Origin: Myxococcales bacterium
GTDB taxonomy: Bacteria > Myxococcota > Myxococcia > Myxococcales > Anaeromyxobacteraceae
Assembly (NCBI GenBank): GCA_038320275.1
Contig: JBBQEB010000103.1
Span: 1-13,785 of the forward strand
Direction of reading: 5' to 3'
Length of the DNA: 13,785 nt
The translations under genes and the position numbers were made by a program. The notes below the pieces were generated by a model. It saw only the letters and a program-made list of their open reading frames with translations. It was not told the origin of the DNA and made no database searches. How positions within the stretch are numbered: the stretch's first letter is position 1; the number at the start of each line of letters is the position of its first letter. Positions 1,536 through 13,785 of the stretch are shown here, piece after piece.

Positions 1536-1892
1536 TCATCTACTCGCCGGCGAGGGCGCTGCAAGCGCGGGGCGCGGCGCCGCGCCTCCCTGCGGGCTCG
1601 CCGGGCGCGCGCCTCGCGCGAGGAGGGCCAGCGCGAAGACGAGGACGGCCGCCGCCGCCAGCACGAGGAGCGCCTTCCGGTGATCCACCCGCCGCTCGCG
1701 CACGCCGCGCAGCGCGAGCATGGTTCCCGCCCGGGTGAACCGCTGCGAGCTCTCCGGCCGGACGAGGTCGTCGTCTCCCACGAAGCCCTGCGCGTAAAGC
1801 GCGTGCAGGTCGGCGAGGGTGGGGCAGACGAGCTCCTTCCCCTCCGCGTCGCGGATCACATAGCGCATGGGCGGTACGCGGGGCGTCGTCAC
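1536..1892 (-). CDS. Small hypothetical membrane protein (soluble N-domain, possibly GYF_2-like, plus one C-terminal TM helix)
   Basis: MRYVIRDAEGKELVCPTLADLHALYAQGFVGDDDLVRPE... then hydrophobic ALLVLAAAAVLVFALALLA. GTG at 1892 overlaps the upstream TGA (GTGA coupling); alternative ATG at 1868. Confidence 0.7.
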   Translation of the reverse strand: MTTPRVPPMRYVIRDAEGKELVCPTLADLHALYAQGFVGDDDLVRPESSQRFTRAGTMLALRGVRERRVDHRKALLVLAAAAVLVFALALLARGARPASPQGGAAPRPALAAPSPASR

Positions 1893-3484
1893 GGCGGCCC
1901 CAGCTCCGCACAGATGGCCTCCGCCACGCGCAGCCCGTCCACCGCCGACGACGCGATGCCCCCCGCGTAGCCCGCGCCCTCACCAGCCGGGTAGAGCCCG
2001 GCGATGCCGGGGGACTGTAAGGTGTCGGCCCGGCGAACGAGCCTGCAGGGCGAGCTGGTGCGCGTCTCCACGCCCACCAGGATGGCCTCCTCGGTGACGT
2101 AGCCGCGCATGCGCTTCTCGAACGCTCTCAAGCCGGCGCGGAGGGCCGCTTTCACTGGCTCGGGGTACAGCACGGACAGGTCGGCGTGGGTGAGCCCGGG
2201 GCGGTAGGAGGAGCGCCCCGGCGCCGTGCCCGCGCGCCCGGCGAGGTAGTCGGTCATGCGCTGCGCCGGAGCGCGGTAGCCGCCTCCCCCGAGCGCGTAC
2301 GCCCGCCGCTCCCAGGCGCGCTGCCACGCGAGCCCCGCCAGCGGGCCCTCGAATCCCTCGGCGGCGAAGTCGGCGGGCCCCACCGCCGCCACGATGCCGG
2401 CGTTGGCGAGCGCGGAGGAGCGGTGGGAGCTCGACATCCCGTTGGTGCAGGTCATGCCCTCCTCGGTCGGGGTCGGCACCACCACGCCTCCGGGGCACAT
2501 GCAGAAGGAGAAGACTCCGCGCTGGCTTCCGCCCACCCGCGGGTTGTCGGCGAGCTTGTAGTCCGCCGGAGGAAGGTGGTGCTCGCGCGCCGCGGTCCCG
2601 TACTGGATGCGATCGATGAGCGCCTGCGGGTGCTCGGCGCGGAATCCCACCGCGAAGGGCTTCGCCTCGACGGGCCAGCCTCGCCGCGCGAAGAGCTCGA
2701 AGAGCTCGCGGGCGCTGTTCCCGGGGGCGAGCACCAGCCGGTCACAGGGGAGGACGCGGCCATCGGCGAGCGCGAGGCCGTGCATCCGCCCGTCCACGAC
2801 CTCCAGATCCACCGCCCGCGCGCTCCAGTGAAAGGTGCAGCCGCCCCCTTCCAGCTCGGCCCGGAGCGCGCTTACCGCCGCCGGCAGGACGTCGGAGCCG
2901 ACGTGCGGCTTTCCCTCTTCGAGGATCCGCTCCACCCCGCCGTAGTGGGCGAAGAGCTCCACCACCTTGCGCACCGCCGGATGGTGGATGCGCGTGCCGA
3001 GCTTCCCGTCCGTGTACGCCCCCGCCCCCCCCTCGCCGAAGTTCATGTTCGACTCGGGATCGAGCGTCCCGTCGCGGAGGAGCTTCGTCACGTCCACCCG
3101 CCGCGGCCCGACGAGGCGCCCGCGGTCCACCACGACCGACCGAACCCCGCGCTCCAGCAGCGCGTGCGCGCAGAAGAGGCCGGCCGGCCCGGCGCCCAGG
3201 ATGACGGGAGGCAGCTCCGGCTGCCGGGCCCGGGGGGGCGCCGGGGCGGGGGCGGGCACCTCGCTGACCTCGGCAAGGCCCGCGGGGAGGGTGCCTTCCA
3301 CCTCCGCCTCGACGTGCAGGAGCCAGCGGGGCTGCCCCTTCTTGCGGGCGTCGAGCGCGCGGCGCACGACGGAGAGGGAGCGCAGGGCGCCGGCCGAGAC
3401 GCCGAGCCGGGAGGCCACCCGGGCGGGAAGCGAGGCGTCGTCCTCCCCGGGCCAGAGCGTGACGTTGAGGACACGGTAGCGCAT
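1889..3484 (-). CDS. Uncharacterised FAD-dependent oxidoreductase/dehydrogenase (COG2509-like)
   Basis: VILGAGPAGLFCA Rossmann motif, NFGEGGAGAYTDGKL, FCMCPGG, GVETRTSSP, GLYPAGEGAGYAGGIASSAVDG. Start trimmed to ATG at 3484 (MRYRVLNV). Confidence 0.88.
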   Translation of the reverse strand: MRYRVLNVTLWPGEDDASLPARVASRLGVSAGALRSLSVVRRALDARKKGQPRWLLHVEAEVEGTLPAGLAEVSEVPAPAPAPPRARQPELPPVILGAGPAGLFCAHALLERGVRSVVVDRGRLVGPRRVDVTKLLRDGTLDPESNMNFGEGGAGAYTDGKLGTRIHHPAVRKVVELFAHYGGVERILEEGKPHVGSDVLPAAVSALRAELEGGGCTFHWSARAVDLEVVDGRMHGLALADGRVLPCDRLVLAPGNSARELFELFARRGWPVEAKPFAVGFRAEHPQALIDRIQYGTAAREHHLPPADYKLADNPRVGGSQRGVFSFCMCPGGVVVPTPTEEGMTCTNGMSSSHRSSALANAGIVAAVGPADFAAEGFEGPLAGLAWQRAWERRAYALGGGGYRAPAQRMTDYLAGRAGTAPGRSSYRPGLTHADLSVLYPEPVKAALRAGLRAFEKRMRGYVTEEAILVGVETRTSSPCRLVRRADTLQSPGIAGLYPAGEGAGYAGGIASSAVDGLRVAEAICAELGPP

Positions 3485-3594
3485 GCGGGGGGATGGATGT
3501 AGCGCCCGACGCGGGGCGTCGCCCGGCGCCCGAGCGCCGGCGCGCCGCGTGAGAAGCCTGCGTCCTTGCACGCCTTTCGGGCGGGGGTTTGGCG

Positions 3595-3623
3595 TTGACG
3601 GGCCGGGAGCGCGCAAGTAGTTT
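3595..3623 (+). promoter_or_regulatory. Sigma70-type promoter of the gap operon
   Basis: TTGACG (3595-3600), 17 nt spacer, TAGTTT (3618-3623), about 46 nt upstream of the gap ATG. Confidence 0.65.
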
Positions 3624-3669
3624 ACCGCCCGTCCCTCCACCCCACACGCGGTCCTTCAGGAGCTTCGGC

Positions 3670-4671
3670 ATGGCGCGCATCGCTATCAATGGGTTCGGTC
3701 GCATCGGTCGCTGCATCGTGCGCGCGGCGCTGAAGCGCGGGGAGAAGGACCTCGAGTTCGTGTCCATCAACGACCTCACCGACACGACGACGCTCGCCCA
3801 CCTGCTCAAGTACGACTCGGTGCACGGGGTCCTGGAAGCCGAGGTGAAGGCCACCGACACGGCCATCGTCGTGAACGGCAAGGAGATCCAGATCACCAAG
3901 GTGAAGAACCCCTCCGAGCTGCCGCACAAGGCGAACGGCATCGACCTGGTCATGGAGTGCACCGGGCTCTTCACCGAGCGCGCCAAGTCCGAGGCCCACC
4001 TGCAGGCCGGCGCCAAGCGAGTGATCATCTCGGCGCCGGGAAAGGGCGTCGATTTCACGGTCGCCTACGGCATCAACCACGAGAAGATCGACAAGGCGAA
4101 GCACGTCATCATCTCGAACGCGTCCTGCACCACGAACTGCCTCACGCCGGTCGCGAAGGTCCTGCTCGAGAGCTTCGGCATCAAGCGCGGCCTCATGACC
4201 ACCATCCACTCGTACACGAATGACCAGAACCTCCTCGACCTGCCGCACAAGGACCTCCGCCGCGCCCGCGCCGCTGCCCTGTCCATGATCCCGTCCACCA
4301 CCGGAGCGGCCAAGGCCGTGGCGGAGGTGATCCCGGAGCTCAAGGGCAAGCTGCACGGCACGGCGGTGCGCGTCCCCACGCCCAACGTCTCCCTGGTCGA
4401 CCTCACCGTGGAGCTCGAGAAGCCGGCCTCGGTGGAGTCCATCAACGCGGCCTTCAAGGCCGCCGCGGAGGGCGCGCTCGCGGGCGTCCTGAAGTACTCG
4501 GAGGAGCCGACGGTCTCCATCGACTACAACGGCGACGCGCACTCCGCCATCTTCGACGCCACCAACACGATGATGGTCGACCCCACCTTCGCCAAGGTCT
4601 TCGCCTGGTACGACAACGAGTGGGGCTTCTCGAACCGGATGATCGACGTCGCCAAGTACCTCACCCGGTAA
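3670..4671 (+). CDS. gap: Type I glyceraldehyde-3-phosphate dehydrogenase
   Basis: MARIAINGFGRIGR, ASCTTNCL active site, WYDNEWGFS; AGGAG RBS at 3658-3662 before ATG 3670. Confidence 0.98.
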   Translation: MARIAINGFGRIGRCIVRAALKRGEKDLEFVSINDLTDTTTLAHLLKYDSVHGVLEAEVKATDTAIVVNGKEIQITKVKNPSELPHKANGIDLVMECTGLFTERAKSEAHLQAGAKRVIISAPGKGVDFTVAYGINHEKIDKAKHVIISNASCTTNCLTPVAKVLLESFGIKRGLMTTIHSYTNDQNLLDLPHKDLRRARAAALSMIPSTTGAAKAVAEVIPELKGKLHGTAVRVPTPNVSLVDLTVELEKPASVESINAAFKAAAEGALAGVLKYSEEPTVSIDYNGDAHSAIFDATNTMMVDPTFAKVFAWYDNEWGFSNRMIDVAKYLTR

Positions 4672-4689
4672 GCGAAGGCGGTCCTCCTC

Positions 4690-5880
4690 ATGGCGCTCAA
4701 GATCATCGACGCCCTCGATCTGGCGGGGAAGCGGGTCTTCATTCGCGTGGACTTCAACGTCCCGCTCGACCCGTCCGGCAAGGTGGCGGACGACCAGCGC
4801 ATCCGCGCTGCCCTGCCCACCATCCAGTACGCGGTGGCCAAGCGGGCGAAGGTCATCCTGGCCTCGCATCTGGGCCGGCCCAAGGGCAAGCCAGAGGACC
4901 ACCAGAAGCTCACCCTCGAGCCTGCGGCGGCGCGGCTGTCCGAGCTCCTGAAGCAGGACGTGATCCTCGCGGACGACTGCGTGGGCGACGGCGTGAAGAA
5001 GCTCGTCCGCGACCTCGGTGACGGCCAGGTGCTCCTCCTCGAGAACCTGCGCTTTCATCCCGAGGAGGAGGCGAACGACGAGTCCTTCGCGCGCGAGCTC
5101 GCGAGCCTCGCGGACGTCTGGGTGAACGACGCCTTCGGCACCGCGCACCGCGCGCACGCGTCCACCGCGGGCATGGCGAAGTTCGTGAAGGAGAAGGCGG
5201 CCGGGTTCCTCATCCAGAAGGAGCTCGACTATCTCGGCAAGGCGCTCGCGAAGCCCGCCAAGCCCTTCGTCGCCATCCTGGGCGGCGCCAAGGTGTCGGA
5301 CAAGATCAAGGTGATCGAGAACCTGCTGGGGAAGGCCGACACCATCTGCATCGGCGGGGCGATGGCCTACACGTTCCTCGAGGCCGAGGGAGTGCCGGTC
5401 GGCAAGAGCAAGGTCGAGAAGGACAAGCTCGATCTGGCGCGCTCCCTGATGGAGAAGGCGAAGGCCGCCAAGGTCGACCTGCTTCTTCCGGTGGATCACG
5501 TCTGCGCCACCGAGGCCAAGGAGACGGCCCAGCGCGAGGTGGTGAACGACCGCGCCATCCCCGAAGGCCTCATCGGGCTCGACATCGGCCCGAAGACGCT
5601 CGATCGCTATCGGCAGCGGGTCCTCGACGCCAAGACGGTGTTCTGGAACGGACCGATGGGTCTCTTCGAGCAGAAGCCCTGGGCCGAGGGGACGTTCGGT
5701 ATCGCGCGCGCCATGGCCGAGTCGCACGCGGTCACCGTCGTCGGAGGGGGCGACAGCGCGGCCGCCGTCGAGGAGGCGGGGCTCGTCGCGAAGATGAAGC
5801 ACGTGTCGACCGGCGGGGGGGCCAGCCTCGAGTTCATCGAGGGCCGCGTCCTCCCCGGCATCCAGGCGCTCGAGGGCTAA
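4690..5880 (+). CDS. pgk: Phosphoglycerate kinase
   Basis: RVDFNVP, ASHLGRPKG, LLENLRF, NDAFGTAHRAHAS, STGGGASLEFIEG. Confidence 0.98.
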   Translation: MALKIIDALDLAGKRVFIRVDFNVPLDPSGKVADDQRIRAALPTIQYAVAKRAKVILASHLGRPKGKPEDHQKLTLEPAAARLSELLKQDVILADDCVGDGVKKLVRDLGDGQVLLLENLRFHPEEEANDESFARELASLADVWVNDAFGTAHRAHASTAGMAKFVKEKAAGFLIQKELDYLGKALAKPAKPFVAILGGAKVSDKIKVIENLLGKADTICIGGAMAYTFLEAEGVPVGKSKVEKDKLDLARSLMEKAKAAKVDLLLPVDHVCATEAKETAQREVVNDRAIPEGLIGLDIGPKTLDRYRQRVLDAKTVFWNGPMGLFEQKPWAEGTFGIARAMAESHAVTVVGGGDSAAAVEEAGLVAKMKHVSTGGGASLEFIEGRVLPGIQALEG

Positions 5881-5883
5881 GGC

Positions 5884-6641
<758 letters not shown>

Positions 6642-6645
<4 letters not shown>

Positions 6646-7433
6646 TCACCCTCGTCACCATCCTCCACATCGCCGTCTGCGTCGTCCTCATCCTCGTGAT
6701 CCTGCTTCAGGCAGGAAAGGGGAGCGGCATGGGTGCCGCGTTTGGCGGCGGTTCCCAGACCGTCTTCGGCGGGCGCGGCGCGCAGACCTTCCTCGGCAAG
6801 GTGACGAGCGGCTGCGCGGCCATCTTCATGCTCACCTCGCTCACGCTCGCCTATCACGCGTCGCACACGGGCTCGGTGATCCGCGCCGCTGATCCGGGTC
6901 CATCGAAGAGCGGGCCCTCCGCGCCGGTGCCGCCCGGCCCATCGGGTGAGACGGGCGCGCCCTCGCCGCCACCGCTCGGGCAGCGTGCGCCGGCCGCCCC
7001 CCAGGGCCCGGCCAGCACGGCTCCCGCCCCGGCTCAGCCCGCCCCGGCCAAGGAGGGGGGGGCGGCCAGCGGGCCGCTATGCGGCGCCGGACGGCGCGTG
7101 GATCACGCGAACGCCCTCGCGCGTCGCCGCCACTGCGAGGCGCGCCACCGCGTGGCAGGCGAGGCACACTCCGCACCCCTTGCCGCCACCGAAGCGGGCG
7201 TGGATGTCTCCGCCGCACGCGACGCAGGCTCGCGGCATCGACACGTCGTGGAAGTCAGGCACCTCCTGATGCAGTTCACCGGTCATGGCTCCATGGGTAA
7301 CGCATGCCCGGACCTTGGCAAGTGGCGCGCCACCGGGCAGGCGCCAGCCGCGGGCGAATTCGTCTCGCCGGGCCTCGAGATGCACCACCGCTGCGCCCTG
7401 CGCGCGCTTGCGTCCACGCGCAGCCTTTGCTAG
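6642..7433 (+). CDS. secG: Preprotein translocase subunit SecG. Recognisable part plus Pro/Ala tail ends near 7052; the frame stays open to 7433.
   Basis: TTG at 6642 overlapping tpi[53 protein letters not shown]; canonical tpiA-secG-tRNA-Leu order. True 3' end uncertain. Confidence 0.9.
7062..7077. terminator. Short GC hairpin between convergent secG and the small Cys-rich gene
   Basis: GCGGCC-AGCG-GGCCGC perfect 6-bp stem; no U-tract. Confidence 0.3.
7077..7286 (-). CDS. Small Cys-rich hypothetical protein (69 aa), probable Zn-ribbon
   Basis: [69 protein letters not shown]; CxxC and CxxCxxCH; GC-rich third codon positions. The longer track ORF crosses the tRNA and was trimmed. Confidence 0.6.
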   Translation of the reverse strand: MTGELHQEVPDFHDVSMPRACVACGGDIHARFGGGKGCGVCLACHAVARLAVAATREGVRVIHAPSGAA

Positions 7434-7436
7434 ATC
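7408..7436 (+). promoter_or_regulatory. Possible promoter for tRNA-Leu
   Basis: TTGCGT, 17 nt spacer, TAGATC (preceded by TGC, extended -10 like), 16 nt upstream of the tRNA. Confidence 0.4.
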
Positions 7437-7452
7437 AGGCCGGCCGCGAAAC

Positions 7453-7534
7453 GCCCAGGTGGTGGAACTGGTAGACACACCATCTTGAGGGGGTGGCGCC
7501 GTAAGGCGTGCGAGTTCGAATCTCGCCCTGGGCA
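7453..7534 (+). tRNA. tRNA-Leu (anticodon GAG), CCA not encoded
   Basis: Acceptor stem GCCCAGG/CCTGGGC, D-loop GGAACTGGTAGAC, anticodon arm CCATC-TTGAGGG-GGTGG (GAG at 7487-7489), long variable arm GCC-GTAA-GGC, T-arm GCGAG-TTCGAAT-CTCGC, discriminator A. Confidence 0.97.
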
Positions 7535-7549
7535 CTTCAGCAGCGCCGG

Positions 7550-7576
7550 CCGCCGCGTGAACCCTCACCGCGGCGG
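7550..7576. terminator. GC-rich hairpin between convergent tRNA-Leu and fdxA
   Basis: CCGCCGCGTGA-ACCC-TCA(C)CGCGGCGG, 11-bp stem with one bulge; no clear U-tract. Confidence 0.45.
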
Positions 7577-7618
7577 GGCCCCTCCCGGCGGGCGCCACTT
7601 CCCGCCCTCGTCGAGGCA

Positions 7619-7945
7619 CTAGGCCCCCTCCAGCAACCCCCGCTTGCCCTTCGCGTCCTTGAACGTCTCCGCCTCGGGGAGCGGTGACTTCTTGTCCGTG
7701 ATGTTGGGCCACGTCTGGCTGAGCCGGGCGTTCAGCGCCACGTACTCCGTCCACTGCGGGGGCAGGCTCTCCTCGGGAAAGATGGCCTTGGTGGGGCAGG
7801 CGGGCTCACAGGCTCCGCAGTCGATGCACTCGTCGGGATGGATGACGAGGAAGTTCGGCCCCTCGTAGAAGCAGTCCACCGGACAGACCTCGACGCAGTC
7901 GGTGTACTTGCACTTGATGCAGGGCTCGGCGACGACGTAGGGCAT
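7619..7945 (-). CDS. fdxA: 7Fe ([3Fe-4S][4Fe-4S]) ferredoxin, Azotobacter FdI type
   Basis: [29 protein letters not shown]...[27 protein letters not shown] directly after the ino1 stop. Confidence 0.95.
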
Positions 7946-7957
7946 CGGTCCCTCCTC

Positions 7958-9286
<1,329 letters not shown>

Positions 9287-9315
9287 GGCGACCTCCTGAC
9301 GACTGGTGGGCCGCC

Positions 9316-9324
9316 ACCTTACCA
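9316..9324 (-). promoter_or_regulatory. Possible extended -10 for ino1-fdxA
   Basis: Minus strand TGG-TAAGGT about 30 nt upstream of the GTG start. Confidence 0.35.
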
Positions 9325-9392
9325 AAGGCCGGGGGAGAAAGGCCGCCCTCGAGCGCGCAGCGCGCCCGATCCCTCGCCGGTACGATCGCGGG

Positions 9393-9767
9393 GTGACCCG
9401 ACCCCTCGTGATCATGCTGCGGGCCGGCGGCTGGGGCGCGCGCCACCACGCGGTGAGCCTCGCGCTCACCGCCGCGGCCCTCGGTGAGGAGGTGCACCTG
9501 GCGCTCTTCGGAGCGGCGCTCCGCCGCTTCCTGCGGGGCACCTTCGACGGCGGCGCGAGCGCGCTCGCCCGGGAGGCGAAGGTGGGCTCGCTCACCGAAG
9601 CGCTGGCGGAGGGGCGGCGCGATCTCGGCATGCGGGTGGTGGCCTGCGACACGGCGCTGCGGCTGGCGGGATGGGACCCTCTGGCGGCCGTCCCGCCCCT
9701 CGACGCGGTGGAGAGCCTGCCCTCGCTCTGGCGACGGGGCATGGATGGGCGCGTACTCACCGTGTAG
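9393..9767 (+). CDS. DsrE/DsrF-like family protein (sulfur relay / peroxiredoxin-like)
   Basis: VSLALTAAALGEEVHLALFGAAL...GMRVVACDTALRLAG pattern with the single conserved-position Cys; GTG at 9393. Confidence 0.75.
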   Translation: MTRPLVIMLRAGGWGARHHAVSLALTAAALGEEVHLALFGAALRRFLRGTFDGGASALAREAKVGSLTEALAEGRRDLGMRVVACDTALRLAGWDPLAAVPPLDAVESLPSLWRRGMDGRVLTV

Positions 9768-9839: not shown

Positions 9840-11084
9840 ATGGCTGTCCTGCCCCTCCTGCTTCTCGCGCTCGCAGCTCCGCCGCCCTCCGTCGCCGTCC
9901 TCGGGCTGGAGTCCGGCTCGGGGGCCCGTGCCCACGAGGCCGTGGCGTCGGCCATCGACGACCGCGACGACCTGAACCTCGTCTCGACCAGGGCCTGGCT
10001 CGCGGGCGCCCGGCGCGGCGGGCTCCGAGGCCAGGCAGCGCTCGCGCCGGCCGCGATCCCCAAGGTTGCGCCGCTCGCCCGGGCGGACGCGGTCCTGGTG
10101 CTCTCGCTGGTGGGGAAGGGCAGGGCGAGACAGGTCCACGCCGCGCTCATGGATCCCGGAGGACGCGAACTGTGGGCCTCCGACGCGCCGCTCGTGCGCG
10201 GCGCGGTCACGGAGGAGGTTTCGATGGAGCTCGCCGGGCGAGTCGCGGCGTCCCTCCAGCCGGCTCCCCCCAGGCCCGCGGCGCCGCCGCCCGCAGCCGA
10301 GCCGGTTCCGCTCCCGCCCGTGCCGCCGGCCGCGCCGCCACCCGCGCCGGCACCCGCCCCGCTCGCCGCCCTCGAGGCGGCACCGCTCCGGATCGCGCTG
10401 GGCGTGCCGCTCACCTGGCGGAGCCAGTCGCTCGGCCCCGCCGCCACCCCGCTCGAATACCGAACGAACACCCCGTACCTGGGCGTCGCGCTCGACCTCG
10501 CCCTCGCGCCCATGCGGCTGCGCGAGGGTACCCGGGCTCCGGGCTGGGCCCAGCCGCTCGAGCTCGACCTCCAGCTCTCCCAGCGCTTCCTGTCGTCGAA
10601 GCTCCCCGACGGCCGCAGTCTCGGTTCGAGCGAGGGCCGCGCCAGCCTCGACCTCGTCGCGCCGGTGACGCTCGCCACCCGCACCCGGCTCGATGCGCGC
10701 GTTGGCTACGGCTTCCACCGCTTCTCCATCGACTCGAACCCTTACCTCCCGGCCTCCAGCCGCCGGGGTCTGCGGCTGGGCCTCGACGCCACGCAGCCGC
10801 TGACGCGCTGGCTCGCCATCGAGGCGGGCGTGCGCTACATGCCGTGGATGAGCCCTGGGGGGGACGAGAAGGCAGCCTTCGGCGAGACCGCCAGCGGCCA
10901 TGGCCTCGAGCTCGTCGCGGGGGTGCGCGGTCCGCTCGCCTTTGCGCGCGGCCTCGGCTGGAGCGCCGCCTACGACTACCTTCGCTTCTCCGACACGTAC
11001 TCCGGGCCCGCGGCGATCCTCCCGGGAGAGGGCGCGACCACGGGCTATCATGCGGCCGTGCTCTCGCTCACCTACGACCGCTAG
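9840..11084 (+). CDS. Hypothetical exported protein: N-terminal alpha/beta domain, Pro-rich linker, probable C-terminal outer-membrane beta-barrel
   Basis: Hydrophobic N-terminus MAVLPLLLLALAA; PAPPRPAAPPP linker; amphipathic strands (RLDARVGYGF, LRLGLDATQP, LAIEAGVRY, GWSAAYDY) and terminal VLSLTYDR. Confidence 0.7.
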   Translation: MAVLPLLLLALAAPPPSVAVLGLESGSGARAHEAVASAIDDRDDLNLVSTRAWLAGARRGGLRGQAALAPAAIPKVAPLARADAVLVLSLVGKGRARQVHAALMDPGGRELWASDAPLVRGAVTEEVSMELAGRVAASLQPAPPRPAAPPPAAEPVPLPPVPPAAPPPAPAPAPLAALEAAPLRIALGVPLTWRSQSLGPAATPLEYRTNTPYLGVALDLALAPMRLREGTRAPGWAQPLELDLQLSQRFLSSKLPDGRSLGSSEGRASLDLVAPVTLATRTRLDARVGYGFHRFSIDSNPYLPASSRRGLRLGLDATQPLTRWLAIEAGVRYMPWMSPGGDEKAAFGETASGHGLELVAGVRGPLAFARGLGWSAAYDYLRFSDTYSGPAAILPGEGATTGYHAAVLSLTYDR

Positions 11085-11804
11085 ATGCGCTCACTCTCCG
11101 ACAAGAGCGCCTTGGTGGTGGGCGCGGGCGGGCTGGGCGGCCCGGCGCTGCTGACGCTGGCGTCGGCAGGGGTAGGGCGTATCACCTTCCTGGACGACGA
11201 CGCGGTGGAGAGCTCGAACCTCCAGCGGCAGCCGCTCTTCGGGGAGGCCGACGTCGGCCAGCGCAAGGCGACCGCCGCCGCGGCGCGCCTCGCCCGCCGC
11301 TTTCCCACCCTTGCTCTCGAGCCGCTCGACCGCCGCTTCGACGCGGCCAACGCGGCGGAGCTCGTCGCGCGCCACGACGTGCTGGTGGATGGTTCGGACA
11401 ACTTCGCCACCCGCTTCCTCGCCAACGACGCCGCGCTCGCCGCGGGCAAGCCGCTCGTGCATGGCGCCGTGCTGCGAACCACGGCCCAGCTCCTGACGGT
11501 GCTTCCCGGGAAGACCGGGTGCCTGCGCTGCCTGTTCGAGGGCCCGCCGCCGGAGGGCGCGGTCCCGAGCTGCGCCGAAGCAGGCGTGCTGGGCCCTATC
11601 GCGGGCCTCGCCGGCGCGCTCCTTGGGACCGAGGCAGTCCGCGTCCTCCTCGGCGAGCGCGGGTCGTACTCGGGTAGGCTGCTCGTGTACGAGGCGCGCA
11701 CCGGCAGGTCGCGCACGGTGGCCGTCCCCCGGCGCGAGGGGTGCCCGGGCTGCGCGCTCGCCCCGCCCGCCTCCGCGGCGCGGGCCGACGAGGCCGGCGC
11801 ATGA
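11085..11804 (+). CDS. ThiF/MoeB/HesA family E1-like adenylyltransferase, copy A (catalytic motifs intact, N-terminal RYxRQ segment absent)
   Basis: VVGAGGLG, DDDAVESSNLQRQ, GQRKA, DGSDNFATR, GCLRCLF, PSCAEAGVLG, CPGC. Confidence 0.93.
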   Translation: MRSLSDKSALVVGAGGLGGPALLTLASAGVGRITFLDDDAVESSNLQRQPLFGEADVGQRKATAAAARLARRFPTLALEPLDRRFDAANAAELVARHDVLVDGSDNFATRFLANDAALAAGKPLVHGAVLRTTAQLLTVLPGKTGCLRCLFEGPPPEGAVPSCAEAGVLGPIAGLAGALLGTEAVRVLLGERGSYSGRLLVYEARTGRSRTVAVPRREGCPGCALAPPASAARADEAGA

Positions 11805-12067
11805 TCGCGGCGACGGTCGACATTCGGGGCGTCGCCTGTCCGATGACGTGGGTGCGCACGCGCGTCGCGCTCGACCGGCTCGCCCTCGGCGAGCGGCTGG
11901 AGGTGCTGCTCAGCCGCGGCGAGGGGCTCGAGAACGTTCCCCGCACGGCGGAGGAGGAGGGGCACGCGGTCGCGCTGCGGGAGCCCGTGACCGGGGCCGG
12001 CGAGGGTGACTGGCGCGTCGTGCTGGTGAAGGGCGGGGCTCCGGCGGCGCAGGGGCTGCTTCCCTGA
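11801..12067 (+). CDS. TusA/SirA family sulfurtransferase
   Basis: MIAATVDIRGVACPMTWVRTRVALDRLALGERLEVLL (D-x-RG-xx-CP motif); ATGA overlap with the upstream E1 gene. Confidence 0.9.
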   Translation: MIAATVDIRGVACPMTWVRTRVALDRLALGERLEVLLSRGEGLENVPRTAEEEGHAVALREPVTGAGEGDWRVVLVKGGAPAAQGLLP

Positions 12068-12089
12068 GCGGGCAGAAAGGAGCTCGAAC

Positions 12090-12773
12090 ATGCTCTCCGA
12101 GGTCGAGGTCGCGCGCTATGCGCGTCAGTTGCTGGTGCCCGGGATGGGCGAGAGCACCCAGGAGCTCTTCCGGTCTTCGCGCGTCCACGTCGTGGGGGCG
12201 GGGGAGCTCGCCGGCCCCGCCATGCTGTACCTCGCCGCGGCGGGGGTGGGGACGATCTACGTGGATGACGCGTCGGACGTATCCGCCGAGGATGCGGCGG
12301 CCTGGCTCTACGAGCTGAACCAGGTGGGCGAGTCGAGGCTCTTCGCGGCCGTGGGGGCGCTCAAGGCCGCCACCTCGCTTTCGCGCCCCCGGGCCTACGC
12401 GACCGGCGCCGATCCCAGCGCTGCGCTCATCCTGCCGGAGTCCCCGGGCCTGGCGCGCGAGGCGGCGGAGCGAGCGCGCGCGACGGGGGTGCCGCACGTG
12501 GTGGGCCAGGCCGACGGCGACGGCGGCGAGGTGGTGGCCGTCCCGGTGGGCGCGCCCTGCTTCACCTGTGCAGCGCGCCCGGGCAGCGGGACGCTCCCGC
12601 GACCGGGCGTGGCTGCGGCGCTGGGGGCGCTCGCTGCGAGCGAGCTCTTGCTCATGATCGCCGGCGCGGTGCAGGGGCCGGTGGGGCGCCGCGTCGAGCT
12701 GGTGCTGGGGCGGCCGCGGGCCCGGGCCACGCTGCGCGTCCCTGGCTGCGCCTGCGGCAAGGCGAGCGGCTGA
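12090..12773 (+). CDS. ThiF/MoeB family protein, copy B (degenerate nucleotide-binding site, RYARQ retained)
   Basis: MLSEVEVARYARQLLVPGMGESTQELFRSSRVHVVGAGELA...LAAAGVGTI...APCFTC...PGCAC; strong AAAGGAG RBS; intact reading frame. Confidence 0.85.
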   Translation: MLSEVEVARYARQLLVPGMGESTQELFRSSRVHVVGAGELAGPAMLYLAAAGVGTIYVDDASDVSAEDAAAWLYELNQVGESRLFAAVGALKAATSLSRPRAYATGADPSAALILPESPGLAREAAERARATGVPHVVGQADGDGGEVVAVPVGAPCFTCAARPGSGTLPRPGVAAALGALAASELLLMIAGAVQGPVGRRVELVLGRPRARATLRVPGCACGKASG

Positions 12774-12778
12774 AGGGG

Positions 12779-13237
12779 ATGGACCCGCTCGACGAGGCCG
12801 CAGCGCGGATCGGCCGCCTGGCCGAGCGCGATCCCGGGCGCGAGGTGTGCGGTCTGGTCCTGCGCCGGGGCGCGGCGTCCCTCGAGGTGCTGGAGTTGCC
12901 CAACCGCGCCGCCGACCCGTGCACCGGGTACGCCATGGCGCCGGCCGAACTGCTCCGCGCCGTCGCCGGCGCGGAGCGGGACGGGGGCGGGCTGGCGGCG
13001 GTGTTCCACTCCCATCCCGAAGGCGGCGCTCGCCTCTCGATCGAGGACCTGCGCGCGGCGCTGCACGAAGGGGAGCCGCTCTGGCCGGGCGTGGAGCAGG
13101 TGGTCGTCTCGGTTCGCGGTGGGGTGGCGGCCGAGATCGCCCGATATCGCTTCGAGCGCGGCGCCTTCCGGCGCGTGCCCGCTGCGGGCGGATCGCGGAG
13201 GCGCGAGGCGCCGCGAGGACCCGTTGTCTGGCCGTGA
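12779..13237 (+). CDS. JAB/MPN+ (Mov34, M67) Zn metalloprotease, Mec/QbsD-like
   Basis: REVCGLV (catalytic Glu) and FHSHPEGGARLSIEDL (HxH-x7-S-xx-D). Confidence 0.92.
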   Translation: MDPLDEAAARIGRLAERDPGREVCGLVLRRGAASLEVLELPNRAADPCTGYAMAPAELLRAVAGAERDGGGLAAVFHSHPEGGARLSIEDLRAALHEGEPLWPGVEQVVVSVRGGVAAEIARYRFERGAFRRVPAAGGSRRREAPRGPVVWP

Positions 13238-13308: not shown

Positions 13309-13785
13309 ATGGACGCGCAGGCGCAGACCGGTTTCATCCTCTGGATCACCGGCATGAACGGCTCCGGAAAGACGTCCCTCGCCCGTCAGCTCCACGGAAA
13401 GCTCGCCGCCGCCGGGCGCCGCGCCGAGCTCATCGACGCCGACGATCCCGCGGAGCTCCTGACCCGAGGTCTCGGCCCGAGCAAGGATGACAGGGAGCTC
13501 GCGGTGCGCAGGGTGGGGCACGTGGCGAAGATGCTGCTGCGGAGCGGCACGGTCGCGGTCTGCGCCTCGCTCTCACCGCAGCGCGACCTGCGCGAGGCCC
13601 TCCGCCGGGAGGCCCGTCGGTTCGTGGAGATCTTCGTCGATTGTCCCATGGAGACGCTGCTCCAGCGCGACCCCATCTACCGCCGGGCGATGGCTGGCGA
13701 GGTCCGGAACGTCCCCGGGGTCGATGACCCGTACGAGCCGCCCACGCATCCCGAGCTCACGGTCCAGACCGACCGGGAGCCGGTC
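13309..13785 (+). CDS. cysC: Adenylyl-sulfate kinase-like protein (3' end outside window)
   Basis: Manually translated: MDAQAQTGFILWITGMNGSGKTSLA...RRVGHVAKML...SLSPQR...FVEIFVDCP...RDP...GVDDPYEPPTHPEL; GGAG RBS upstream. Confidence 0.85.
   Translation, partial: MDAQAQTGFILWITGMNGSGKTSLARQLHGKLAAAGRRAELIDADDPAELLTRGLGPSKDDRELAVRRVGHVAKMLLRSGTVAVCASLSPQRDLREALRREARRFVEIFVDCPMETLLQRDPIYRRAMAGEVRNVPGVDDPYEPPTHPELTVQTDREPV

Follow-up and report, generated by a model that had tools for sequence, protein, structure and literature searches.

The 13,785-nucleotide stretch analyzed here, referred to below as the window, is part of contig JBBQEB010000103.1 from a Myxococcales bacterium (Anaeromyxobacteraceae), and coordinates given without a locus name are positions on its forward strand. 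Two paralogues of the MoeB/ThiF adenylyltransferases, here called gene A and gene B, lie in the window and appear, from their translations, to have divided the conserved residues of the family between them. We consider it likely that their products together form an asymmetric MoeB-type adenylyltransferase, a sulfur-carrier E1 with a single active site, that arose through duplication and division of labor. The features of the pair are the following.

11085–11804, forward strand: gene A, 239 residues, an N-terminally truncated MoeB/ThiF adenylyltransferase, predicted active subunit
12078–12082, forward strand: Shine-Dalgarno-like AGGAG, 7 bases 5' of the gene B ATG
12090–12773, forward strand: gene B, 227 residues, an inactive MoeB paralogue, predicted arginine donor and dimer partner
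12123–12125, forward strand: codon of B Arg12, aligned to Escherichia coli MoeB Arg14 (the trans arginine)

The original prediction, made from the letters of this DNA alone, described A as a complete catalytic core lacking its N-terminus, and the translation bears this out. Gene A contains GAGGLG (G13–G18), SNLQRQ (44–49), the conserved K61, DGSDN (102–106), the Zn pairs CLRC (146–149) and CPGC (220–223), and the crossover cysteine, Cys163, in PSCAEAG. In the alignment to E. coli MoeB (E 1e-42; A residues 3–224 of 239), G13–G18, R48, K61 and D105 fall on residues of the MoeB ATP/Mg site, and equivalents of Gly41, Arg73, Lys86, Asp130 and Cys187 are retained along with both Zn pairs; the first four of these are described as the MoeB active site (PMC12355090). 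Gene A scores 222 bits against the Pfam ThiF model (cut-off 28.1) and stays below the NCBIfam cut-offs for MoeB, ThiF and MoeZ (best 227.8 against 449, 190.4 against 266, and 186.7 against 275.25). Only 12 residues precede GAGGLG. The MoeB alignment begins at MoeB residue 28, and A is therefore without the first 27 residues of MoeB, which include Arg11 and Arg14; the alignment to SAE2 starts at SAE2 residue 19. That A cannot be extended upstream to recover the RYxRQ helix was also correct, as the TAG at 11082–11084, in frame with gene A, is the stop codon of a 414-residue upstream reading frame (9840–11084), and RYxRQ is absent from all three reading frames upstream. The same N-terminus is missing from 29 of the 29 A orthologues whose Gly loop was located by script (three more were not parsed), and the RYxRQ/Arg14 helix is missing from A in 65/65 loci that carry both genes and show the A start, so that the truncation is not a chance event.

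Two trivial origins of the truncation were considered and rejected. A frameshift or a miscalled start is contradicted by the upstream frames and by the variability of the upstream DNA between orthologues, and A and B are not the halves of one split gene, since the first strands, the helix after the P-loop, the CxxC and the helix after the crossover are present in both. A substitute arginine in cis, which would have spoken against a need for B, was searched for, and no arginine or lysine column special to A was found; the closest is R210, at 0.95 in A versus 0.62 in full-length proteins.

Gene B is altered in a different set of positions. As predicted, its translation shows RYARQ (9–13), GAGELA (36–41), CFTC (157–160) and CAC (220–222), and it lacks the loop glycines, SNLxRQ, the Mg-binding aspartate at the MoeB Asp130 position (and with it DxxD) and the crossover cysteine. 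The N-terminal RYARQ helix, the helices after the P-loop and after the crossover, and the CxxC/CxC cysteines are retained. A phmmer comparison with E. coli MoeB (1jw9) covers MoeB residues 4–248 (E 8e-12) and places Arg9 and Arg12 of B on Arg11 and Arg14, and the Pfam ThiF score is 52.9 bits. A structure model of B, with a predicted local distance difference test (pLDDT) score of 87.4, matches MoeB 1jw9 with Z 25.4 and a root-mean-square deviation of 2.6 over 217 aligned residues (B 4–224 of 227); as modeled, B has the whole MoeB fold.

Among 120 close homologues of B, a set not picked by motif, R9 is present in 120 and R12 in 113, and the Arg12 equivalent occurs in 69/72 B genes of the locus tally given below, in which NLxRQ or GxGGLG occurs in 0/72; the conservation of the RYxRQ arginine on which the original prediction depended is thus confirmed. 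Its emphasis on GAGELA was right for the loss of the GxGGLG glycines, which is the conserved trait, but not for the glutamate, found in just 53 of the 120. In the same set Asp60 is present in 118 and Arg83, at the position of the ATP-binding lysine, in 120, and part of the ATP pocket therefore survives in the B family of the window, whose nearest named homologues belong to Anaeromyxobacteraceae. More widely, the only residues invariant in 33 B sequences across the order are L2, R12, Q24, L48 and G52, and in 19 diverged B sequences only the arginine, the glutamine and one glycine are invariant. B can be as short as about 98 residues, with the arginine retained. The model of a 98-residue B (pLDDT 89.6), which has no Pfam match, begins with two helices, which are followed in turn by a strand, a third helix, a second strand and a long terminal helix. 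These correspond to the N-terminal helices, two strands, and the post-P-loop and post-crossover helices of MoeB, elements that we assign to the dimer surface of MoeB. All of the top five structural matches of this short form are to E1-like proteins (Uba4, Z 7.3; TcdA, 6.7; MoeB, 6.0; NAE1, 5.0; PaaA, 4.8), modest values below 8, with the match to MoeB spanning residues 2–217.

Over nine pairs, the ratio of nonsynonymous to synonymous substitution rates (dN/dS) is 0.12–0.38 for B and 0.13–0.39 for A, and B is under purifying selection. These values bear on the idea that the two genes are duplicates in decay (pseudogenes, or relics evolving almost neutrally) and that their lesions look complementary by chance. 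B is indeed very divergent, ranging from about 95 to 250 residues, and dead secondary copies of the pair exist. Against this stand the dN/dS of B, frames that are open in records from Myxococcota, Candidatus (Ca.) Binatia and Magnetococcus, and at least 150 clusters at 50% identity that carry the arginine and lack NLxRQ. The selection on B and the conservation of the arginine across clusters largely refute chance decay, which we regard as extremely improbable; neutral decay of B, which the original prediction had named as a way for it to fail, is not what the genes display.

To what extent the two proteins share out the family's residues was evaluated by aligning 71 full-length proteins together with 61 A and 41 B sequences; 7 degenerate or ambiguous A-like sequences were left out. 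The full-length proteins, a class defined by the motif itself so that the classes are partly circular, have 55 columns with conservation of 85% or more. A alone retains 25 of these columns and B alone 9, while 10 persist in both and 11 in neither. G16, G18, N45, R48, Q49, K61, D105 and C163 are present in 97–100% of the A proteins and 0–17% of the B proteins; R9, R12 and Q24 are present in 95–100% of the B proteins and absent from A. A holds the residues of the ATP site, and B holds the N-terminal R, Y, R, G and Q. Judged by these sequences the split is complementary, A keeping the ATP/Mg site and the crossover cysteine, and B keeping the N-terminal helix that bears the Arg14 equivalent, together with its neighboring helices.

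The co-occurrence survey that the original prediction called for shows that the pair recurs across Myxococcota and beyond. B orthologues with E < 1e-40 were found in 23 of 24 genomes of the same family, the 24th being cut by a contig end, and a wider search of the family found such orthologues in 78 of 92 genomes. Another 16 genomes represent other families of the order: 12 carry the A+B pair, one has lost both and three gave only full-length MoeB; three genomes of the family we label f4 gave only full-length matches. The pair is also present in other Myxococcota families and in records titled Ca. Binatia and Magnetococcus sp. (one record). A profile of 19 diverged B proteins was searched against 1.84 billion representatives, and its best 150 matches, of 119–251 residues, carry the Arg14 equivalent in 150/150 and NLxRQ in 0/150, a profile of this composition itself favoring the arginine motif. 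A search with the B protein of family f23 returned its own sequence only, and a search for B on plasmids matched 53 records, all of them covering less than 80% of the query.

To follow the two genes together, 88 loci of the operon or the pair, chosen from the fetched loci and excluding duplicates and carrier-MoeZ operons of another kind, were tallied; the loci are related and the counts are not independent trials. Truncated A and arginine-bearing B occur together in 68 (three with the A start cut off, three being secondary copies with a degenerate A). Full-length MoeB without B was found in three, all of one family and one of them frameshifted, with no B elsewhere in the two genomes searched. 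Neither gene is present in seven, and no truncated A was found elsewhere in the four genomes searched. Two loci display co-decay, in which A has lost NLxRQ, Asp130 and the cysteine and B has deleted the N-terminal arginine helix while remaining in frame. One has B alone, with A elsewhere in its genome, one is cut by a contig end, and six have A without B. In a separate set of 80 carrier loci from many phyla, 33 have a full-length MoeB-type gene and 0/33 have B (counted by hand). A further 80 titled loci, fetched with a Binatia-like B alignment, comprise 23 with B, 57 with full-length MoeB and none with both; the 23 include 19 with truncated A, one with A partly in view and three that are cut. 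A quick tree of 138 cores needs six label changes, of which starred branches force only one, and a single origin of truncated A is therefore neither shown nor excluded.

The heterodimer is well supported by these results, because the partition of residues, the co-occurrence over more than one phylum, the lack of B beside full-length operon MoeB, the co-loss and co-decay, and the purifying selection on B all point to it. We infer the A:B complex from this comparative genomics, and the placement of Arg12 in the site of A from homology. The comparative evidence thus partly supports the original prediction: it favors the asymmetric E1, but not the claim that the association is obligate.

Several observations weigh against a heterodimer of this kind, besides the partly circular classes and the relatedness of the loci. 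The six loci of 88 in which A is alone retain all its catalytic motifs and belong to three lineages, so that "obligate" cannot be claimed for the family; they are four Nannocystis-like loci (L106, L111, L113, L125), the Polyangiaceae locus L148, with a B-bearing sister in the tree, and L089, in which the N-terminus of A is longer but carries no such arginine. No B was found elsewhere in these six genomes, just one of which has a stated completeness (95%). Whether A orthologues usually occur without B, which the original prediction had named as a way to refute it, thus came out partly against that prediction. The full-length control and the co-decay case each come from one lineage, and Arg12 is replaced in 7 of the 120 close B homologues. 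A carrier profile built from relatives gave no match in this genome (90.7% complete). A full-length MoeZ, a possible partner of A, is encoded here and in five B-less genomes searched for ThiF. Published work is also divided on whether the trans arginine is essential. In Uba4, the site is formed by Gly45, Arg77, Lys90 and Asp134 together with Arg18 of the other subunit, and R18A strongly lowers adenylation (PMC7527816), but the arginine finger is called non-essential in MoeB and ThiF, the Tcd1 substitution R59A costs just 26%, and the inactive Tcd1 is needed mainly for the stability of Tcd2 (PMC13139853). B may be as important in stabilizing the enzyme as in donating the arginine, and not every lineage has an absolute requirement for it.

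Alternatively, A could be active as a homodimer without a trans arginine, in the manner described for TcdA, with B an accessory pseudoenzyme that, for example, holds the carrier or tunes A through competition for the dimer surface. The A-only loci speak for this, the arginine finger is described as absent from E. coli TcdA (PMC13139853), and pairs in which a dead A accompanies a B persist in Anaeromyxobacteraceae. We consider it unlikely, because the Arg14 equivalent is the most conserved residue of the most reduced B forms, B has never been seen beside a full-length operon MoeB, and B lost the arginine helix where A died. Moreover, where the context is visible, R12 is kept in 22/22 main-operon copies and replaced in 1/7 secondary copies, this sole substitution lying beside a dead A.

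The secondary copies are A+B cassettes that move as two-gene units without TusA (L041:9049-10460, L045:8167-9592, L047:8257-9707, L399, L403, L408, L416). They occur in several Anaeromyxobacteraceae genera; A has lost catalytic residues, yet both frames are open and adjacent, and dN/dS in one such pair is 0.39 and 0.36. FKBP, cold-shock, moeA and 4Fe-4S genes lie next to two of them. Pairs with both members inactive may be slowly decaying or may serve some non-catalytic function.

The genome also encodes, outside the operon, ThiS, a MoaD-MoaE-like fusion, and a rhodanese-MoeB fusion (MoeZ) with its own RYGRH. The gene adjoining ThiS is presumably thiG. With such a MoeZ at hand, A could borrow the helix and arginine from it, and B would then be a partner or inhibitor of MoeZ; the full-length MoeZ of the five B-less genomes could explain those lineages. 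This is very unlikely, since presence, loss and decay of B track A while MoeZ stays, and A and B move together as a cassette.

The surroundings of the pair, of which the original prediction mentioned neither the TusA gene between A and B nor the JAB and CysC genes after B, place it in a sulfur operon. The other features of the window are listed below.

9840–11084, forward strand: hypothetical protein of 414 residues, whose TAG abuts the A ATG; not part of A
11801–12067, forward strand: TusA/SirA-family sulfurtransferase with a CPM motif; its start overlaps the A stop (ATGA)
12779–13237, forward strand: JAB/JAMM metalloprotease (Mec/desampylase-like)
13309–13785, forward strand: adenylyl-sulfate kinase CysC, cut by the contig end and continuing on contig C71
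7453–7535: tRNA-Leu(GAG), an ordinary neighbor

The gene order in the window is A, TusA, B, JAB, CysC, and it continues on contig C71 with larE, an RHH gene and, on the other strand, truA. Many relatives have a carrier gene in the operon, and in other families of the order the operon often includes a pyridoxal phosphate (PLP) cysteine synthase along with a carrier of the ThiS family whose C-terminus is GG, GGR or GGAR. The typical arrangement is A-TusA-(ubiquitin-like carrier)-B-(cysteine synthase)-JAB-CysC-LarE, and it is retained in genomes without its carrier and cysteine synthase.

Side by side with known enzymes, the pair suggests the following mechanism. B would replace the second MoeB protomer and pack against A, placing Arg12 on the phosphates of ATP bound in A, so that each dimer would have one active site. 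A would adenylate the C-terminal glycine of a ThiS-, MoaD- or CysO-type carrier, and TusA would supply persulfide sulfur to give the carrier thiocarboxylate, standing in for the rhodanese domain absent from A; SirA/TusA in place of rhodanese has been proposed for such operons (PMC1779556). JAB would trim, unmask or recycle the carrier C-terminal GG. In most lineages the cysteine synthase encoded nearby would take the sulfur, as in the mycobacterial CysO route, where cysteine synthase uses the carrier thiocarboxylate (PMC3227635), and LarE possibly would as well. With no operon carrier detected in this genome, the probable substrate here is a protein encoded outside the operon, either ThiS or the MoaD portion of the MoaD-MoaE fusion.

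An E1 followed by a JAB protease could alternatively serve protein conjugation, a ubiquitin-like tagging reversed by JAB, more than sulfur transfer, a possibility that concerns the output and not the architecture of A:B. The JAB protein has its best match to a desampylase model, below the cut-off, A retains Cys163, and the operon is kept where carrier and cysteine synthase are gone. Its neighbors are TusA, cysteine synthases, CysC and LarE, however, and the layout fits the sulfur-assimilation operon class described in PMC1779556. No E2 family appeared among the Pfam matches of 100 frames around 12 loci, the whole genome not having been searched for E2 families. We judge conjugation quite improbable.

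Other observations were made on the operon and its neighborhood. LarE (TIGR00268, with CxxC and a further cysteine) is a steady member (contig C71:295-1134, L040:7398-8249, L043:11578-12420), and larC lies elsewhere in 5/5 genomes checked; the carrier thiocarboxylate could serve as LarE sulfur donor. The MoaD-MoaE-like fusion (L006:1087-1746, contig C58 of this genome) has an internal GG, for which the operon JAB protease is a candidate cleaver. A lies in one frame with TusA in three loci (L063:5335-6249, L066:2-709, L087:3489-4559) and with the carrier in one (L067:5376-7400), suggesting fusions. A second cysteine synthase lies upstream of the operon in L089, L090, L230 and L231, and in L089 and L090 the upstream gene resembles what we take to be an Rrf2 regulator. 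In the window, the 414-residue frame stands between A and a small conserved gene (9306–9767, forward strand). The 414-residue protein has no Pfam match; its look-alikes are Myxococcota clusters, with one lower match to an outer-membrane beta-barrel family. The counterpart of the small gene at the same place in L040 (L040:11148-11519) matches DsrE weakly (E 7e-4, below the cut-off), and the gene in the window gives no match; it possibly encodes another sulfur-relay protein. Further upstream (1889–9271) lie genes for a FAD-dependent protein, gap-pgk-tpi-secG, a ferredoxin and myo-inositol-1-phosphate synthase, and the frames at 2–1495 and 1536–1892 have no Pfam match. Scans for sigma-70 promoters and terminators gave nothing above shuffled sequences.

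NAE1 and SAE1 are the subunits that supply the arginine in the eukaryotic heterodimeric E1s. In NAE1-UBA3 and SAE1-SAE2, inactive and active adenylation subunits are separate chains (PMC12355090, PMC11354881), a likeness that A and B share by sequence. The two genes are best read as a bacterial parallel of these enzymes, but for sulfur transfer. They are not members of the canonical heterodimeric E1s, since they have neither Cys half-domains nor a ubiquitin-fold domain, for which there is no room because A aligns to MoeB over residues 3–224 of 239 and the B model over 4–224 of 227. No E2 was found nearby, A is a bare 239-residue MoeB, B can be as small as about 98 residues, and the output is likely a thiocarboxylate.

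With E. coli MoeB/ThiF and Uba4/MOCS3, the pair shares the fold, the ATP and Zn sites, the crossover cysteine and the sulfur-carrier context. In those enzymes an arginine from the partner subunit is described as completing the active site (PMC7527816, PMC13139853), and the same is proposed for A:B. In contrast, there are two genes for one, A is without the arginine helix and B without the ATP site, one site per dimer is predicted, and neither protein reaches any NCBIfam MoeB/ThiF cut-off. BilD, the E1 of type II Bil antiphage systems, is likewise bacterial and combines an inactive with an active adenylation domain, with one site and Arg9 supplied by the inactive domain; unlike A and B, which are separate genes with TusA between them in a sulfur operon, it is a single polypeptide with an 80-residue CYS insertion and an E2 partner, and acts in defense (PMC10557695). 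Yeast Tcd1-Tcd2 is a ThiF-family heterodimer born of duplication, in which the inactive partner carries GxGExG, is without an equivalent of Arg73, provides the arginine finger and stabilizes the active subunit; it differs in being eukaryotic, in acting on tRNA t6A and in its extra C-terminal domain (PMC13139853), and gene A scores 34.3 bits against the TcdA family (cut-off 304). Tcd1-Tcd2 is the closest two-gene analogue, and BilD embodies the same logic in one bacterial chain.

As an operon, the locus resembles those in rows 4c and 4e of Iyer et al. 2006 (PMC1779556), which also have an E1 without rhodanese, SirA/TusA, JAB and adenylyl-sulfate kinase, and which share the carrier and cysteine synthase with the operons of relatives, the carrier gene not being in this window. 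It may also be likened to mycobacterial CysO-CysM-Mec-MoeZ (PMC3227635). The passages describing both systems give one full-length E1 and mention no inactive second copy; LarE is an additional conserved neighbor in the A/B operon.

The division of labor between an inactive and an active adenylation unit is already known in bacteria in fused form, in BilD. In recent papers, bacterial enzymes of the MoeB/ThiF type are presented as homodimers, BilD being the fused exception, and the account of BilD describes the other known bacterial E1-like proteins as homodimers (PMC10557695). Neither a bacterial MoeB heterodimer encoded by two genes nor the A/B pair, the two-gene sulfur-carrier form, turned up in the literature searched, which took in few subscription papers and did not extend to the supplementary files of PMC1779556, where such operons may be listed.

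If true, a two-gene heterodimer adds the missing arrangement among bacterial E1-like enzymes. The chances seem evenly balanced that bacteria independently made the step from homodimer to heterodimer known from eukaryotic E1s, as two free genes in sulfur metabolism, with its stages still alive: a full-length homodimer-type MoeB, a full-size inactive partner, and a minimal partner of about 95 residues, hardly more than an arginine finger on a dimerization surface, without which A is not switched on. The natural series from full-length enzyme to 98-residue partner would make the origin of an inactive adenylation subunit testable. Because the trans arginine is carried by a second chain that has no catalytic function, what it does in catalysis and what it does for the structure become separable, precisely where published results disagree. 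The annotation of the family would be corrected as well, since B proteins are now labeled adenylyltransferases or hypothetical proteins.

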